Of a stretch of 22,209 bases of DNA, positions 3,871 through 16,147 are shown in pieces. The notes under the pieces were generated by a model. It saw nothing but the letters and a program-made list of their open reading frames with translations, did no database searches and had not been told where the DNA came from. The position numbers and the translations under genes are program-made. The stretch is from a virus (lineage: Duplodnaviria > Heunggongvirae > Uroviricota > Caudoviricetes): the IMG/VR virus record IMGVR_UViG_2526164633_000039; one strand, written 5' to 3'. Positions within the stretch are counted from its first letter, which is position 1. Every line of letters starts with the position of its first letter.

Positions 3871-4062
3871 TTAAAGACCTGCCGGGATTTCGTTATTATC
3901 CTGGTGAATAACTTTATCGACCGGGTAACAGTTACCGGGAATTTTCTGTTCGGTTGCTGCAGTCACACACTCCTGCATTGTCCTGTGAACACTGACTGCA
4001 ATATCAACTGGCTCTCCGGAAACAAGAAAAACTGTCAGAACAAGTGCAAATGCTGTATTCAT
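3871..4062 (-). CDS. ydfD: Small protein (63 aa) with N-terminal hydrophobic segment, YdfD-like (Qin prophage lysis protein) by position and size
   Basis: Start ATG at 4060-4062 overlaps the dicB-like stop as ATGA. Protein MNTAFALVLTVFLVSGEPVDIAV... Sits immediately downstream of dicB as in Qin. Name is from recollection. Confidence 0.5.
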   Translation of the reverse strand: MNTAFALVLTVFLVSGEPVDIAVSVHRTMQECVTAATEQKIPGNCYPVDKVIHQDNNEIPAGL

Positions 4063-4247
4063 TGCCAGCATCCTTTTTGTATCGGACGTAAACGGGCCAG
4101 CATTGAAAGAATGCATATTTTATTTAATAACTCCCGTTCGTGTTTTCTCTTGTTAATGGCATCTTCAGTAAATACAGGGTTACTGATAGTGACACCAATT
4201 TCAAAACAACCTTCAGACGTATTAACGTTTGGTAATAACGTTTCCAT
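4059..4247 (-). CDS. dicB: DicB-like cell-division inhibitor (62 aa)
   Basis: Internal ATG of track ORF 4059..4352 at 4245-4247, preceded by GAGGA. Protein METLLPNVNTSEGCFEIGVTISNPVFTEDAINKRK... matches my recollection of E. coli DicB. DicF lies just upstream. Confidence 0.65.
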   Translation of the reverse strand: METLLPNVNTSEGCFEIGVTISNPVFTEDAINKRKHERELLNKICILSMLARLRPIQKGCWQ

Positions 4248-4427
4248 TATCGCGTCCTCAACAATGAATTTTGTGATGCGATGCCTGGTGCCTCCAGGTG
4301 ACGTTAACCAGTTAACAATTAACGCCGGATACAGAGAATCCACCCATAACACTGTTTTTGGTTTTAACTGTTCCGCGTGCGCTCAGCCGCATTCACCACA
4401 TCACAAAATTCACTTTAAAAAGGGCGG

Positions 4428-4485
4428 CAGAGCAGTCACGGAGTAAAACTGATACCGCCAAACGTCACCAGAAAATTGATAACAG
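4428..4485 (-). ncRNA. dicF: DicF small regulatory RNA (ftsZ-targeting) with intrinsic terminator
   Basis: Reverse complement of 4433-4485 reads TTTCTGGTGACGTTTGGCGGTATCAGTTTTACTCCGTGACTGCTCTGCCGCCC followed by a T-run, matching the DicF sequence as I recall it. GGCGG...CCGCC forms the terminator stem. Confidence 0.65.
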
Positions 4486-4815
4486 AGGGCGTTGCAGCGG
4501 GGTTGTCACTTAAGCGTATGGTCAACCTGACAACCCGGTGTCCTCAACGGGGGAAGGAATAACCCCGCCATACTTACCGCCGCGCCATTTCGCGGATTGC
4601 CACAACCGGAAGCGCACGGTCGACGAAAATTTAACGACAGGCTATCTATGAACCAGCTACCTCGCCGTGCGCTTTCGCGTTATGGTCTGACTTTTCAGGG
4701 AAATATCCTTTCAGTAAACTGTCAATGCCGGATGCTCACCCATGTCCGGCGCACGCACTCCACCTCACCCGTGGAGAACTCCTTAATTACCAACCTTAGC
4801 TTCGTTGGTTAGCTA

Positions 4816-5034
4816 TTAACGCGGGTATGTAATCATTCTGGCAATGCTTAATGCCGCTGCTTTTTCCAGCCTGGTGATATCCTGCTCCAGAGCGGACAGA
4901 TTTTCAGCCTGCTTAGCCCTGGCTTCATTGGCCCATTTCAGATCCTGCGCTGCATTAATTTTCTGGCGCATCCACTCATAAAGTTCATCATCGGTATAGT
5001 CTGGCGAGATGATGACGGGTTCTCGTTTCTGCAT
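4816..5034 (-). CDS. Hypothetical 72-aa protein (YdfC-like by size and position)
   Basis: Track ORF with GAGGAA RBS upstream of the ATG at 5032-5034. Third small gene upstream of dicF in the dicB-type operon. Confidence 0.45.
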   Translation of the reverse strand: MQKREPVIISPDYTDDELYEWMRQKINAAQDLKWANEARAKQAENLSALEQDITRLEKAAALSIARMITYPR

Positions 5035-5063
5035 ACTGATTCCTCGCGGTGCTGCTTCGCTTA

Positions 5064-5192
5064 TCAGCCGTTAGATTTTGCCGAGCTGGAAAGCGCCTGT
5101 TTAAACTCACTGAAGCTGAGAGCTTCTTCGCCTTCGGCAAGGCCTTCGAAGTATTCTTCGTAAGCCTTTTCCATGATTGTGTCGAAATCCAT
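5064..5192 (-). CDS. Hypothetical 42-aa acidic protein (YdfB-like by size and position)
   Basis: Not in the track (<60 aa). Hand translation of the minus strand gives MDFDTIMEKAYEEYFEGLAEGEEALSFSEFKQALSSSAKSNG, with an AGGTGA RBS before the ATG at 5190-5192. Fits tightly between neighbouring genes. Confidence 0.4.
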   Translation of the reverse strand: MDFDTIMEKAYEEYFEGLAEGEEALSFSEFKQALSSSAKSNG

Positions 5193-5193
5193 A

Positions 5194-5349
5194 TCACTCA
5201 CCTGAGTTTCTTTCCAGCCAGCGACGGGCACCATTTTCGGTTTTAAACGTTTTGCTTCTGGTATACGTCATCGCGGTAAACGTGCCGTCCTGGTTGGGAA
5301 ACACGCCGCATACCAGAGATTCGTTGTTGCCAAGATCGATAGTATTCAT
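5194..5349 (-). CDS. Hypothetical 51-aa protein (YdfA-like by size and position)
   Basis: Internal ATG at 5347-5349 of track ORF 5194..5403 with GAGG 6 nt upstream. Protein MNTIDLGNNESLVCGVFPNQDGTF... First gene after the operator-bearing intergenic region. Confidence 0.45.
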   Translation of the reverse strand: MNTIDLGNNESLVCGVFPNQDGTFTAMTYTRSKTFKTENGARRWLERNSGE

Positions 5350-5429
5350 GCTGACCTCATTTCCCCTTAACGCCGGGGTAGCGGAACTGTTTGCTGAGAA
5401 CACCGTGCGGTGTCTTGGTGGAGATTAAT

Positions 5430-5481
5430 TTAGAATAACCTAACAAATGTAGCAAGTATTTTTGTTAGATTGGTCTAACAA
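5430..5481. promoter_or_regulatory. Two palindromic operator-like sites (TTAGAATAACCTAACA and TTGTTAGATTGGTCTAACAA) upstream of the early-left small-gene operon
   Basis: 5462-5481 is a perfect 8+4+8 inverted repeat sharing the TGTTAG/CTAACA half-site with the sites at 5927-5991. Consistent with a repressor-controlled promoter of the dicB-type operon. Confidence 0.4.
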
Positions 5482-5516
5482 AAAGAGTGAGGGAATCTAA
5501 GTATCTGAAAGGAGTG

Positions 5517-5924
5517 TTATTTTATTGATTTGTTTTTACGTGCTTTAAGCATTTCTTCGAAGAGTTTATTGAAATTCTCTACTCTTGCGCGCATTTCAGA
5601 CAGTAAGGCTTCCTGCTCGGAGGAGGGAAGAGCATCGAATAATTCGATCAATTCTTTGTGGCTGGGAGTTAACTCGGTTTCCACATGAAGTTCTTGTGCT
5701 GGCACTGGTGCCTTGTCTTCGTCACCAAACATTAGCCATGTAGGCGAGCACTTCAGCGCATCAGCTAAAGCAAATAACCGCTTCCCGACCGGTTGGGTTT
5801 CGTCTCTTTCCCATTGTGAAATTGTGACGTGAGCTACCCCAGCGAGGCGTGCAGCTTCTCGTTGTGTTAGGCGTAATTCTTTTCGTCGTGCCAGAACTCG
5901 CTGGCCTAGGGTTCTTGTATCCAT
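5517..5924 (-). CDS. dicA: XRE-family HTH repressor, DicA/CI-like (135 aa)
   Basis: ATG at 5922-5924. HTH signature LTQREAARLAGVAHVTISQWERDE. C-terminal CSPTWLMFGDEDK and EMRARVENFNKLFEEMLKAR resemble DicA as I recall it. Divergent from a Cro/DicC-like gene. Confidence 0.7.
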   Translation of the reverse strand: MDTRTLGQRVLARRKELRLTQREAARLAGVAHVTISQWERDETQPVGKRLFALADALKCSPTWLMFGDEDKAPVPAQELHVETELTPSHKELIELFDALPSSEQEALLSEMRARVENFNKLFEEMLKARKNKSIK

Positions 5925-5926
5925 AG

Positions 5927-5991
5927 TTAGGTAATTCTAATTTTTCTTGACTTAGGTATCCCGCGCACATTACTGTTAGGAATATCTAACA
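5927..5991. promoter_or_regulatory. Divergent promoter/operator region with palindromes TTAGGTAATTCTAA (5927-5940) and TGTTAGGAATATCTAACA (5974-5991)
   Basis: Inverted repeats with the same half-site as 5430-5481, lying between the divergent repressor and cro-like genes. A TTGACT -35-like hexamer sits at about 5947-5952. Confidence 0.45.
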
Positions 5992-6004
5992 AGAGGGGGC
6001 TTTG

Positions 6005-6232
6005 ATGCTTAAAGTTGACGCAATTACTTTTTTTGGCAGCAAAACAAAACTTGCCAATGCCGCAGGAGTGAAACTGGCAAGTGTTGCTGCATGGGGGGAA
6101 CTGGTTCCTGAAGGTCGCGCGATGCGCCTGCAAGAGGCATCCGGCGGGGAACTTCAGTACGACCCCAAAGTTTATGACGAATATCGTAAGGCAAAGCGGG
6201 CGGGGCGGTTGAACAATGAAAATCACCCCTGA
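6005..6232 (+). CDS. dicC: Cro/DicC-like small DNA-binding protein (75 aa from ATG; TTG at 6002 possible)
   Basis: AGAGGGGG RBS 5-8 nt upstream of the ATG at 6005. Divergent from the repressor. Sequence MLKVDAITFFGSKTKLANAAGVKLASVAAW... is YdaS/DicC-like. Confidence 0.6.
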   Translation: MLKVDAITFFGSKTKLANAAGVKLASVAAWGELVPEGRAMRLQEASGGELQYDPKVYDEYRKAKRAGRLNNENHP

Positions 6233-6737
6233 ACAGGTTTGTGAGGCTCTGGATGCCTGGGTATGCCGACCAGGAATGACACAGGAGCAGGCGACGATAT
6301 TAATCACGGAAGCATTCTGGGCTCTGAAAGAACGCCCGAACATCGATGTTCAACGCGTCACGTTTAATGATGGCGAGGTTGATCAACGGGCGTTGGGCGT
6401 TAACCGGGTGAAGATATTCGAACGCTGGAAAGCTATCGACACCAGGGATAAGCGGGAAAAATTCACGGCGCTGATTCCGGCAATTATGGAGGCTATCCGG
6501 ATCAGCGATTTCAGGTTGTATTGTGAAATTACTGACGGAAAAAGCATTACGTACATGATCGCCGGGTTAAACAAAGAATATGGTGATGTGGTGGAGTCCG
6601 GGCTGCTTTTTGCGGATCCATCTGTTGTGGAACGTGAGACTGACGAGCTTATAGAAAAAGCTATTGCTTTCAAGCATGCGTATCGTCAGCAATACCAACA
6701 AAAAGCTGGATGGAATTATGAGCCTTCTTTTTGCTGA
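6216..6737 (+). CDS. Hypothetical 173-aa protein in the cII position (possibly YdaT-family)
   Basis: Track ORF overlapping the end of the dicC-like gene. Family assignment is a weak recollection only. Confidence 0.4.
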   Translation: MKITPEQVCEALDAWVCRPGMTQEQATILITEAFWALKERPNIDVQRVTFNDGEVDQRALGVNRVKIFERWKAIDTRDKREKFTALIPAIMEAIRISDFRLYCEITDGKSITYMIAGLNKEYGDVVESGLLFADPSVVERETDELIEKAIAFKHAYRQQYQQKAGWNYEPSFC

Positions 6738-8499: not shown

Positions 8500-9531
8500 A
8501 TGTCTATTAATCCTAAACTTAAGCGTATCGCGCGACGCTATCCAGCGTTATTCCAATATGAGTCCCCCTATATGGCAAGAAAATTAATAATATTCGGCAA
8601 CGGTCTCGGTATGGCTTTAGATCCTGCTCACTTCTCCTTAGACAGAGCGTTGGAAGAAATTTGGCATCGCCCCAATTTTTTAAAAGATATCCACAAGCAA
8701 CTTATCGAGCGTTGTCTTCAGCGGCAAGGTCCACCAGAAGGAGAACATGAGTTGGATACCCTTCACCAGGCTGTCACATATTGTAAAGCTCTTGCTCAAA
8801 TTGGAGAGGGGAACGTGCATTGGCTTACTGAAGATGGACTAAACTTCCCCAAAATTACCGCCACTTATATTCACAAAGTTGCAACCAGGTTGCATAATTA
8901 CGATAAAGGTTTGCCACAAAGATTCGAAAATGCGCTTGTGGAGTTTGTAAAGAACACACACTCACATATCGCGACATTAAACTATGACAAATTATTATAC
9001 AATTCATTCATAGATAATGATATATTCAACGGGTATGATGGGGTTTTAGTTGATGGGATGCTAAGCCACGGATTTTCCTCTGCAGCGCTCGAACGGAAAT
9101 ACAATCGTAGGTTTGGTTATTATTTGCACTTGCATGGTTCACCACTATTTATTAATCAGCATGAAAATGTTTTAAAACTTTCACGCTCACAACTTACTCT
9201 TGACATAGATGAACCTAGTGAGCATATAGTGTTAACTCATATAAAAAGAAAACCGTCAGTTATAGCAGCATCTAATGTTCTTTCTACGTACTGGGATTAT
9301 TTGCAGTTTGCATTATTTGAATCAGAAGAAATAATATTGTTTGGTTACTCTGGTCTCGATATTCACCTTAACCTGCTTATTCGACCTTACCTAACCTCTA
9401 AGCCTTTAAGAGTAATTGAGTGGAGCGGTGCTGGTGAACAAAACGCTCGTGAGATATATTGGAAAAACCAGTTGAGACGGGAAGTTACTGTAATTAGGTT
9501 GGATAACATCACTGATTTTATTGATTGGTAG
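8500..9531 (+). CDS. SIR2-like (sirtuin-fold, SIR2_2/DUF4020-type) protein, 343 aa; candidate NAD-consuming anti-phage defence effector
   Basis: Motifs read directly from the translation: glycine-rich IIFGNGLGMA (aa 30-39), IATLNYD (Asn161), YLHLHGS (His210/His212), ILFGYSGLDIHL (aa 279-290). These match the order and spacing of defence-associated SIR2 domains. Coding GC is far lower than the flanking prophage (about 32% in sampled 60-nt stretches). Confidence 0.65.
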   Translation: MSINPKLKRIARRYPALFQYESPYMARKLIIFGNGLGMALDPAHFSLDRALEEIWHRPNFLKDIHKQLIERCLQRQGPPEGEHELDTLHQAVTYCKALAQIGEGNVHWLTEDGLNFPKITATYIHKVATRLHNYDKGLPQRFENALVEFVKNTHSHIATLNYDKLLYNSFIDNDIFNGYDGVLVDGMLSHGFSSAALERKYNRRFGYYLHLHGSPLFINQHENVLKLSRSQLTLDIDEPSEHIVLTHIKRKPSVIAASNVLSTYWDYLQFALFESEEIILFGYSGLDIHLNLLIRPYLTSKPLRVIEWSGAGEQNAREIYWKNQLRREVTVIRLDNITDFIDW

Positions 9532-9691: not shown

Positions 9692-9902
9692 TTTTATATT
9701 GGCGAGGTGACGGGAGTTAAGTAGAATTGCTGCGGGTGCTTGAGGCTGTCTGCCTCGGGCATGCCACCGTAAGGCAGACAGAGAAAAGCCCCAGTTAACA
9801 TTACGCGTCCTGCAAGACGCTTAACATTAATCTGAGGCCCAATCTATGCTTCACAAACGTAGGTTAGCCTCTTACGCGCCGAAAGGCAAGGAGAAGCAGG
9901 CT

Positions 9903-10058
9903 ATGAAGCAGCAAAAGGCGATGTTAATCGCCCTGATCGTCATCTGTTTAACCGTCATAGTGACGGCACTGGTAACGAGGAAAGACCTCTGCGAGGTACG
10001 AATCCGAACCGGCCAGACGGAGGTCGCTGTCTTCACAGCTTACGAACCTGAGGAGTAA
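9903..10058 (+). CDS. hokD: Hok/Gef-family type I toxin (51 aa), HokD/RelF-like
   Basis: MKQQKAMLIALIVICLTVIVTALVTRKDLCEVRIRTGQTEVAVFTAYEPEE has the Hok TM segment and conserved Cys. An in-frame upstream extension from 9846 is mok-like. A perfect 10-bp leader hairpin lies at about 9745-9780. Confidence 0.8.
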   Translation: MKQQKAMLIALIVICLTVIVTALVTRKDLCEVRIRTGQTEVAVFTAYEPEE

Positions 10059-10273: not shown

Positions 10274-10525
10274 ATGATGAACATCGAAGAACTGCGTAAA
10301 ATTTTTTGTGAAGATGGCCTCTATGCTGTGTGCGTTGAAAATGGAAATATTGTTAGTCATTACCGCATTGTGTGTTTGCGAAAGAATGGGGCTGCGTTAA
10401 TTAATTTTGTGGATGGTCGAGTGACAGACGGATTTATCTTGCGCGAAGGTGAGTTTGTCACTTCATTACAGGCACTGAAAGAGATCGGAATAAAAGCTGG
10501 CTTTTCTGCTTTTTCAGAAGAATAA
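10274..10525 (+). CDS. rem: Hypothetical 83-aa protein, Rem-like (Qin prophage rem neighbour of hokD) by size and position
   Basis: GGAAGGA RBS before ATGATG at 10274. Lies immediately downstream of hok as in Qin. Identity rests on recollection and synteny. Confidence 0.45.
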   Translation: MMNIEELRKIFCEDGLYAVCVENGNIVSHYRIVCLRKNGAALINFVDGRVTDGFILREGEFVTSLQALKEIGIKAGFSAFSEE

Positions 10526-11611: not shown

Positions 11612-11641
11612 GTAAGCGGCTCGCCAGAACCGTATTGATAT

Positions 11642-13213
11642 TTACTGAGAGGTCAGATCAACTTTCCAGGGCAACAGATCGCGTACCCGGTTTGCCGGCC
11701 AATCCTGGATATGCTCAATGACGTAACGCAGCCATTTTTCTGGTTCCACATTGTTCAGACGGCATGTGCCGATCAGCGAGTACAACACCGCCGCATGTTC
11801 GCCACCGCTGTCGGAACCCGCGAACAGCCAGTTTTTCCGGCCTACGGCCACTCCCCGTAAGGCGTTCTCTGCGATGTTGTTGTCGATTTCCACCCAGCCA
11901 TTACTGCAGTACACGTTCAGGCCATCCCACTGTTTCAGCAGGTATGCGAACGCTTTTGCCGTATCCGAGTGACGCGACAGTGTTTTCATCTGAGTCTGTA
12001 TCCAGTCATACAGTGACTGCATCAGTGGCGCAGCTCTGGCTTTTCTTGCCGCCAGACGCTGTTCTGCTGTACATCCCCGGACTTCTGCCTCTATGGCATA
12101 CAGTTCACCGATACGCTGCAGGGCTTCCGTGGTGATGTCGGTGGGCACTCTTGCATGCACATCGTGGATTTTTCTCCGGGCATGAGCCATACACGCGGCT
12201 TCCGTTATTCTGCCGGATTCGTATAACACCCGGTAACCACCGTAAGCATCGGCCTGAAGCACACCGCTGTAACCGGCCAGATGATTTTGTGGATGGATAC
12301 CTTTCCGGTCCGGTGAGTACGCGAACCAGACCGCCGGGGGCATTTCCGAACCGGCGTTACGGTCATCACGGACGTAGACCCACAGCCGGGCGGTCCGGGT
12401 TTTACCGCTGCCCGGCTCCTGGACCGGGACGGGGATATCATCAGCATGGACTTTACCGGGCATCAGCACATACTGGCGCAGGACGTCATACAGCGGCTCC
12501 AGCAGTTCAGCAACGGCACCTGTCCAGCGCCCCAGCGTGGCGCGGCTCAGCTCCACGCCCTGGCGACGGTATATTTCTGACTGGCGGTATAACGGCAGAT
12601 GGTCTGCATATTTCCCGGTAACAACATGGGCCAGAAGCCCCGCTCCGGCATAACTGCGTGCAATGGGTTTTGAAGGTACTGTTGCCTGCACGATATGGTC
12701 GCACCGACAACAGGCCAGTTTCGGACGTTGTGTTTCGATAACCTTAAAGGCGCTGCTGATAAGCTCCAGTTGCTCTGACACATCACACCCCAGAGGACTG
12801 AGGTCACCACCACAGGCCGGGCAGCATTCCTCTTCCGGCCGGATGACCCGGGTTTCACGGGGAAGTGAGGCCGGTAACGGTTTACGGGCTGAAGACTGGC
12901 GCAGGGCGGATGGCAGTACCGGGTCATATTGCTCACCCAGCGTTTCCGCCATTTCTTCCTGAAGTGCGCTGATTCGCTCCTGTGCTTCCTGTATCTGCCG
13001 TTCGGTTTTAGCGCGAAGTTTTTCTGAGCTTTTACCGAACTGCATGCGCTGCAGTTTCGCAACCAGCGCCTTCAGCCGGTTGATTTCGGAAGCATAAGCC
13101 GCCACCCGCTGTGAGAGCAGGCGGTTGTATTTCGCCATCTGGCGGATGGTGTCCTGTTGCGTCTGCAACAGTGCCCGCAGGCGGGCATTCTCATGAGCAA
13201 GTGAGGTGTCCAT
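11642..13213 (-). CDS. tnpC: IS66-family transposase TnpC (523 aa)
   Basis: Intact ORF with N-terminal coiled-coil/leucine-zipper-like region, a Cys-rich zinc-finger region (CPACGG...CCRCDH) and conserved IS66 transposase core. Confidence 0.9.
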
Positions 13214-16009: not shown

Positions 16010-16147
16010 ATGGGCGGCTGGTGGGTGTTAGCGGCACCTGCCAGCCATCTGCTCATGCGTTGGGGTCACAAGCAAACCTCAGGCCCATCTGCTTTGCGCA
16101 AAAGCGGTATGAGCCTATCAGAGAAGTGCTTATTGATCTATGGCTAA
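16010..16147 (+). CDS. Hypothetical small ORF whose stop overlaps the methyltransferase start
   Basis: Track ORF 15932..16147 with an internal ATG at 16010. Its TAA at 16145-16147 overlaps the methyltransferase ATG at 16140, suggesting translational coupling. Weak RBS. Confidence 0.25.
   Translation: MGGWWVLAAPASHLLMRWGHKQTSGPSALRKSGMSLSEKCLLIYG

Follow-up and report, generated by a model that had tools for sequence, protein, structure and literature searches.

In the Qin prophage of Escherichia coli K-12, the repressor DicA binds the operator Oc, TTGTTAGTCATAACTAACAA, in vivo, and a single A-to-C change in one arm of Oc abolishes the binding (Yun et al. 2012, PMC3441716). Oc overlaps the -10 element (TATCTT) of the dicC promoter, for which the start was determined by 5'RACE and the -35 and -10 were mapped; DicA at Oc represses dicC and activates dicA (PMC3441716). 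Two other operators predicted from sequence, Om and Oa, are not bound by DicA alone in vivo, and Cnu-H-NS antagonises DicA at the K-12 site (PMC3441716). Deletion of dicA de-represses the promoter of the dicB operon (dicBp) 22-fold, the anti-repressor Rem induces it 165-fold, and the switch displays DicC-dependent bistability (Ragunathan et al. 2023, PMC10448788). The same authors, citing Bejar 1988, state that each intergenic region holds three operators, like OR and OL of lambda (PMC10448788). In a 2024 preprint, ChIP-seq of DicC gave its two strongest peaks to either side of dicA, and a palindromic motif TT(A/C/T)G...C(G/A/T)AA; DicC strongly represses dicA in K-12, and regulation of DicA targets by YjdC is reported for cells without DicA (PMC11430063). 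The Reg-Seq paper (2020) treats the DicA site at dicB as low-evidence with its location not known, a gSELEX paper gives the target operon only for DicA, and a ChIP compendium paper does not mention the protein. Control of an OR-like and a PL-like set of operators by a single repressor is already established for Qin since 1988, through the publications of 1988, 2012, 2023 and 2024.

The DNA analysed here, referred to as the window, is a stretch of 22,209 nucleotides. It represents a lambdoid E. coli prophage of the Qin type and, over 2.4 kb, shows 99.8% identity to strains including O111:H2 12A, in which the prophage adjoins yccA. The genes of the switch and of the operon that it is predicted to control are as follows.

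5517-5924, minus strand: dicA-like repressor, 135 aa, with an N-terminal helix-turn-helix (HTH) (Pfam HTH_3, E = 1.2e-14)
6005-6232, plus strand: dicC-like Cro analogue, 75 aa (Pfam P22_Cro, E = 1.9e-13; 83% identity to K-12 DicC)
6216-6737, plus strand: ydaT-family gene, 173 aa, in the CII position of the PR-like operon (Pfam YdaT_toxin; RefSeq annotation)
4059-5349, minus strand: ydfA-ydfB-ydfC-DicF-dicB operon (Pfam DUF1391 for ydfA, Rfam, and the RefSeq annotation of the 99.8% identical locus)
5194-5349, minus strand: ydfA (DUF1391)
about 5064-5192, minus strand: ydfB
4816-5034, minus strand: ydfC
4422-4473, minus strand: DicF RNA (Rfam, 76.7 bits)
about 4059-4247, minus strand: dicB
10274-10525, plus strand: rem, an ORF of 83 aa, likely an anti-repressor gene ('protein Rem' in the 99.8% identical RefSeq locus)

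The dicA-like repressor is 57% identical to K-12 DicA over 132 aa (E = 3e-55), and its recognition helix reads AHVTISQWE. Residues 1-71 match the N-terminal domain of the P22 c2 repressor (E = 1e-18), with no alignment beyond residue 71. A Pfam search of the 135-aa protein returned HTH families only and no Peptidase_S24, the protein thus being devoid of a self-cleavage domain. The dicC-like gene is transcribed divergently from the repressor gene. By analogy with K-12, the rem product likely inactivates a repressor of the DicA type. The Qin DicA/DicC system is present here as a diverged allele. Its defining features amenable to sequence analysis are all in place, namely a DicA homologue, a divergent dicC, an Oc-type site TTGTTAG-N6-CTAACAA, a predicted downstream dicBp, and rem.

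Elsewhere in the window, a direct repeat of ∼1.2 kb and 94-97% identity (11612-12829 and 20602-21825, the copies ∼9 kb apart) points to duplication or mosaicism of a late-regulatory module, or else to two phage segments that adjoin; its first copy spans the DUF968, RusA, and DUF1133 gene region. An ORF of the SIR2 family (343 aa, 8500-9531, plus strand) is placed like a moron, with the replication genes on one side and hokD on the other, has weak PADLOC matches (Aga_SIR2 and PDC-S21, E about 1e-6), and may be a prophage-borne anti-phage defence gene. Rfam matches at 9734-9908, 17239-17485, and 17564-17754 correspond to the sok antitoxin RNA beside hokD, a cluster of three tRNAs, and the sRNA STnc100, which are typical cargo of lambdoid or Stx-like prophages.

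The motif TTAG-N6-CTAA has exactly four matches in the window (5430-5443, 5465-5478, 5927-5940, and 5976-5989), where 0.17 are expected, and none of 100 shuffles reached four. Dinucleotide-preserving shuffles restricted to the two site-bearing intergenic stretches (57% and 61% A+T) averaged 0.011 matches, and two or more never occurred in 20,000 such shuffles. The longer 18-mer TGTTAG-N6-CTAACA is perfect at 5463-5480 and 5974-5991, and carries two mismatches at 5428-5445 and three at 5925-5942. The hexamer TGTTAG taken singly is not enriched (10 occurrences in the whole window against 8.7 expected); hence, the signal lies in the paired, spaced arrangement. Other sequences of the window that have two to three mismatches to the 18-mer, such as those at 16026 and 17416, number 13 against 7 expected and were set aside as chance, one of them lying within a tRNA. 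The first-pass annotation had proposed four operator candidates with the common half-site TGTTAG/CTAACA, two on either side of the repressor gene. The enrichment of the motif upholds the proposal, and so does its placement, with two sites between the dicA-like stop (5517) and the ydfA-like ATG (5349) and two between the dicA-like ATG (5924) and the cro/dicC-like ATG (6005). We consider it highly probable, judging from the sequence, that these palindromes serve as operators in an immunity switch of the DicA/DicC (CI/Cro-like) type.

The divergent dicA/dicC-like region contains the following predicted elements.

5974-5991: strong predicted operator, counterpart of K-12 Oc, TGTTAGGAATATCTAACA; a perfect 18-mer that overlaps the -10/start region of the dicC-like promoter
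5950-5967: weak middle candidate site, counterpart of K-12 Om, ACTTAGgtatccCGCGCA; read from the sequence and absent from the first-pass annotation
5925-5942: weak predicted operator, counterpart of K-12 Oa, AGTTAGGTAATTCTAATT; it abuts the dicA-like ATG and its TTAG/CTAA core is intact
5947-5976, plus strand: predicted dicC-like (PR-like) promoter, with -35 TTGACT at 5947-5952, placed by alignment with K-12

The region consists of one strong, one weak, and one half-site-only site with a spacing of ∼24-25 bp. In an alignment across 21 relatives, the arms of 5974-5991 are invariant and its spacer is variable, and 5925-5942 is strongly conserved among relatives. At 5950-5967, the recognisable half-site is limited to the one beside the -35 of the dicC-like promoter; the half-site adjoining GTCAAG varies by specificity class, reading CTAAG in the window, CTCAAG in the related locus L012, and AGTTAT in L014 and L017. 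The -35 is kept in the alignment of relatives, and the -10 is ambiguous, being either ATTACT (5969-5974, 16-nt spacer) or TACTGT (5971-5976, 18-nt spacer); it runs into the left arm of 5974-5991. Within 5922-5942 (minus strand), no Shine-Dalgarno sequence was seen before the dicA-like ATG; 7-15 nt upstream of the ATG, relatives share a -10-like element (TAGAAT/AATTAC). The dicA mRNA of K-12 is leaderless by dRNA-seq, one of few such mRNAs in E. coli (PMC4681348). The dicA-like repressor is, by this analogy, probably translated from a leaderless transcript, as is lambda cI from PRM, and the lack of a Shine-Dalgarno sequence together with the K-12 precedent places the predicted dicA -10 and start inside 5925-5942. 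A scan of 5340-6020 against the sigma-70 consensus gave no promoter at the scanner threshold, and promoters were therefore assigned by alignment with K-12; we infer their hexamers and start sites in both intergenic regions from sequence.

The second region lies downstream of the repressor gene and ahead of ydfA.

5463-5480 (20-bp form 5462-5481): strong distal predicted operator of the dicB-operon promoter, TGTTAGATTGGTCTAACA; a perfect 18-mer
5428-5445: proximal predicted operator of the dicB-operon promoter, ATTTAGAATAACCTAACA; two mismatches; it fills the spacer between -35 and -10 and overlaps the -10
5427-5455, minus strand: predicted dicBp (PL-like) promoter, with -35 TTGCTA (5455-5450), a 17-nt spacer, and -10 TAAATT (5432-5427)

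The predicted promoter ahead of ydfABC-dicF-dicB is bracketed by predicted operators, with two sites around its -35 and -10 within 5427-5480. It aligns with TTGACC-17-TAATCT of K-12, scores 8/12 (under the scanner threshold), and would start near 5419-5421. The distal site lies 7 bp upstream of the predicted -35, and among relatives its position is kept at 35-42 bp past the dicA stop. The degenerate arm of the proximal site is also the -10 hexamer, TAAATT or TAATCT, in every relative. A candidate third operator upstream of the distal site (ACTTAG...CTCACT, 15-32 bp past the dicA stop) was rejected as weak and unconserved in relatives. In several relatives (L045, L083, and L106), the stretch from the dicA stop to the distal operator holds a clear terminator made of a hairpin and a T-run, which in L083 reads CCTAACT...AGTTAGG-TTTTTT. 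No obvious equivalent was seen in the window at 5480-5516; hence, transcription of dicA might read into the ydfA promoter region.

The leader between dicBp and ydfA (5350-5420, minus strand) is conserved even between loci of different operator specificity, as compared in L003-L020 and many of L024-L143. Its elements comprise the start region (CATCAA), the first of two hairpins (ACACCG-CA-CGGTGT), an invariant motif GTTCCGC/GTTCTGAC, and a second hairpin with co-varying stems (CCCC/GGGG, GCC/GGC, CCCTG/CAGGG, GCCG/CGGC, and GTCTG/CAGAC) and loops GCGATAA or GAAAGA. It was found by blastn in phages mEp460, HannyBb, PPompW, and phiES15. An Rfam search with the leader gave no match even at E = 10, and the immunity region of HK022 showed neither a comparable motif nor a sequence match; an HK022-type put RNA and a known Rfam family were accordingly rejected as its identity. 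The fold of the single sequence was no better than that of shuffles, and an automatic consensus fold was uninformative. Possible roles for the leader are antitermination, in the manner of nut or put, and processing.

Conservation of the palindromes in related phages is the check that the first-pass annotation had named for its proposal, and the sites proved to be kept. A scan of one genome per species gave 21 loci with DicA relatives of 46-100% identity in 12 genera, including Escherichia, Citrobacter, Enterobacter, Symbiopectobacterium, Rahnella, and Buttiauxella. All intact loci of this set have one palindrome before the divergent cro-like gene and one abutting the dicA ATG, as well as two palindromes past the dicA stop around a TTGnnn-17-TAAnnT promoter; the layout of two plus two holds across about 50 related loci. 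Among relatives the half-site changes with the recognition helix of the repressor. The helix H-V-[ST]-[IV]-S-Q pairs with TGTTAG, S-[GD]-S-S-I-S-L with (A)TTGAG/CTCAA(T), S-S-V-S-V-F-K with ATAACT/AGTTAT, and S-[HY]-A-[ST]-I-S-L with TGTTGAG/TTAACA. As an independent test, viral contigs were scanned for the exact 20-mer TTGTTAG-N6-CTAACAA. Of 120 matches, 43 have a DicA homologue (61-100% identity) at a distance of 39-62 bp, and every DicA allele read among those found in this way carries the helix [AS]HV[TS][IV]SQ. The remaining 77, most of them on contigs of low GC content, appear to be chance matches. When unique intergenic sequences were aligned, the arms were invariant, the spacers variable, and the -35 elements conserved. 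These comparisons lend support to the site of action of DicA at the dicB-operon promoter, the place that Reg-Seq (2020) called unknown, and locate the predicted operators and promoters to the base in a common, unstudied DicA-switch allele.

A reading that has to be weighed against operators of the phage repressor is that the palindromes arose by chance in AT-rich intergenic DNA, the regions being 57-61% A+T, or that they are sites for host proteins such as H-NS/Cnu or YjdC. In K-12, Cnu-H-NS antagonises DicA at its site (PMC3441716), and YjdC is reported on DicA targets without DicA (PMC11430063). Chance origin is excluded by the shuffles, however, and the positions are kept across genera with a half-site that co-varies with the recognition helix of the phage repressor, while a host factor would not switch specificity between prophages. 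This reading is already disfavoured, and we hold it to be extremely improbable.

A narrower reading accepts phage operators and limits those of the repressor to the two perfect sites, with 5428-5445 and 5925-5942 kept mainly as -10/start elements, or as sites of DicC rather than DicA. Each weak site does coincide in part with a -10-like hexamer, formed by precisely its deviating arm (TAAATT or AATTAC/TAGAAT); the K-12 sites Oa and Om show no DicA binding in vivo (PMC3441716), and ChIP of DicC found binding on both sides of dicA along with strong repression of dicA (PMC11430063). Against this, both weak sites retain the invariant TTAG/CTAA core, and at loci of other specificity the site at the ATG drifts towards the half-site of its own locus, as in L012, where it reads ATTTAG...CTTAAT and the locus's own form is ATTGAG...CTCAAT. 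The proximal dicBp site is, in addition, the sole one placed to block the -10. Cooperatively filled weak sites are normal in lambdoid switches, as at OR2 and OR3 of lambda, which also counts against a restriction to the perfect sites. We regard the narrower reading as unlikely.

A dimer of the 135-aa repressor would bind the 18-bp TGTTAG-N6-CTAACA sites, as the homology of its HTH domain to P22 c2 leads one to expect a two-fold site of 18 bp bound by a dimer. Repressor on 5974-5991, which covers the predicted -10 and start of the dicC-like gene, would switch off dicC and ydaT, and its presence there would favour the overlapping, weak, and probably leaderless dicA promoter. Since the two divergent starts are ∼60 bp apart, we infer that repression of the dicC promoter alone could relieve competition and appear as activation of dicA. 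The site at 5925-5942 covers the predicted dicA promoter and start and would allow dicA to be shut off by the Cro-like DicC or by excess repressor, in the manner of lambda OR3. Given that K-12 Oa is not bound by DicA alone, this site may serve DicC or need cooperativity, and DicA itself may not use it as an operator. It is almost certain that the Cro-like protein uses the same sites as the repressor. At dicBp, the predicted -35 lies between 5463-5480 and 5428-5445, the latter extending into the -10, so that occupation of the pair would block RNA polymerase and keep the division inhibitors silent. The weak sites are plausibly degenerate because the deviating arm of each doubles as a -10 hexamer. 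With a repressor that is without a self-cleavage domain, release is expected through Rem or through a flip to the DicC state rather than through RecA-dependent cleavage.

The tally of unique half-sites by allele class points to a further layer of specificity. The rule for picking sites fixed TTAG/CTAA alone, and positions 7-9 of the half-site are therefore unbiased by it. Positions 1-6, T-G-T-T-A-G, are common to the window class (helix AHVTISQ) and the K-12 class (helix SHVSVSQ). Position 7 is a purine in 59/70 half-sites of the window class and a pyrimidine in 56/58 of the K-12 class, position 8 is T in 44/70 and a pyrimidine in 56/58, respectively, and position 9 is A or T in the former and A in 51/58 of the latter, the tallied sites being related by descent and the K-12 class representing only about three or four independent lineages. 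The inner triplet is thus R-T-W in the window class and Y-Y-A in the K-12 class, a difference that may be new, and the pattern suggests separate immunity types for the two classes in spite of their common core. It is conceivable, though in our judgement somewhat short of an even chance, that there are at least two DicA allele classes with immunity specificity written in the apparent spacer (positions 7-9), and that the shared core, together with a DicC that seems to recognise TTAG...CTAA alone, could permit partial cross-regulation of dicB/dicF operons between co-resident prophages. The reported DicC motif is without the inner positions (PMC11430063), which leaves room for such cross-talk. Since positions 7-9 differ between the classes, the binding data of K-12 may not transfer quantitatively to the window.

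The proposal that one repressor controls both the immunity switch and the division-inhibitor operon is supported by the K-12 Qin circuit, by positional homology, and by the co-variation of helix and half-site, and it extends to the window by analogy, as DicA binding and regulation have been shown by others for K-12 only and the window allele is only 57% identical. The description of the locus as a special, compact bipartite circuit does not hold up, the layout being that of an ordinary lambdoid OR/OL.

Comparison with the described systems places the locus among them as follows. The RacR/YdaS/YdaT module of Rac has the same lambdoid immunity layout, with a Cro-like gene and then a YdaT-family gene in the rightward operon, whereas its repressor (RacR) and operators differ from those of the window. 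In Rac, the transcription factor YdaT has binding sites both in the immunity region and in a box within the ydaT gene itself (PMC11879457); the YdaT boxes (ATGATT-N6-AATCAA) were rejected as a source of the window palindromes, which their motif does not match. With lambda CI/Cro the window shares divergent repressor and cro promoters over a multi-site operator region and a second operator set that governs the leftward early operon, and lambda resembles K-12 in its leaderless repressor mRNA (dicA in K-12) and bistable switch. In contrast, the window proteins are not homologous to CI or Cro, the operator sequence differs, the PL-like promoter has two clear sites only, 35 bp apart and flanking the -35, and no N gene follows it.

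The c2 repressor of P22 has a homologous N-terminal DNA-binding domain, with the helix SNVAISQWE against AHVTISQWE in the window (V-x-I-S-Q-W-E kept). The P22 operators and the window sites are alike 18-mers of two-fold symmetry, in which the outer half-site contains TTA and the centre is uncontacted. The consensus operator of P22 is ATTTAAG-N4-CTTAAAT, and its half-site ATTTAAG contrasts with TGTTAG of the window. P22 c2 comprises 216 aa with a C-terminal LexA-like cleavage domain, whereas the 135-aa window repressor has none, and induction is expected to depend on an anti-repressor in the window system in place of RecA for P22 c2.

The K-12 Qin prophage has the same gene order, with dicC divergent from dicA, followed by ydfA, ydfB, ydfC, dicF, and dicB, and rem present; the architecture of the 135-aa repressor and the operator core TGTTAG-N6-CTAACA are common to both. 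The differences lie in the recognition helix (AHVTISQ in the window and SHVSVSQ in K-12), in the gene after dicC (the 173-aa ydaT-family gene in the window and the 96-aa YdfX ORF in K-12), and in the distal dicBp site, which is degenerate in K-12 (TGTTAGCTATAGCATACA) and perfect in the window. The proximal dicBp site of K-12, TGTTAGTCATGGCTAATC, is the counterpart of 5428-5445, and the pair brackets the -35 at 35 bp centre to centre in both prophages. Oc of K-12, in the same orientation, is TGTTAGTCATAACTAACA and lies 68 bp before the dicA ATG (offset -68), with the window site 5974-5991 at 67 bp (-67), and Oa, ATTTAGCATTAGCTAACT, is at -18 from the dicA ATG in K-12 and equally in the window, such that the distance from Oc to Oa is 50 bp in K-12 and 49 bp in the window.
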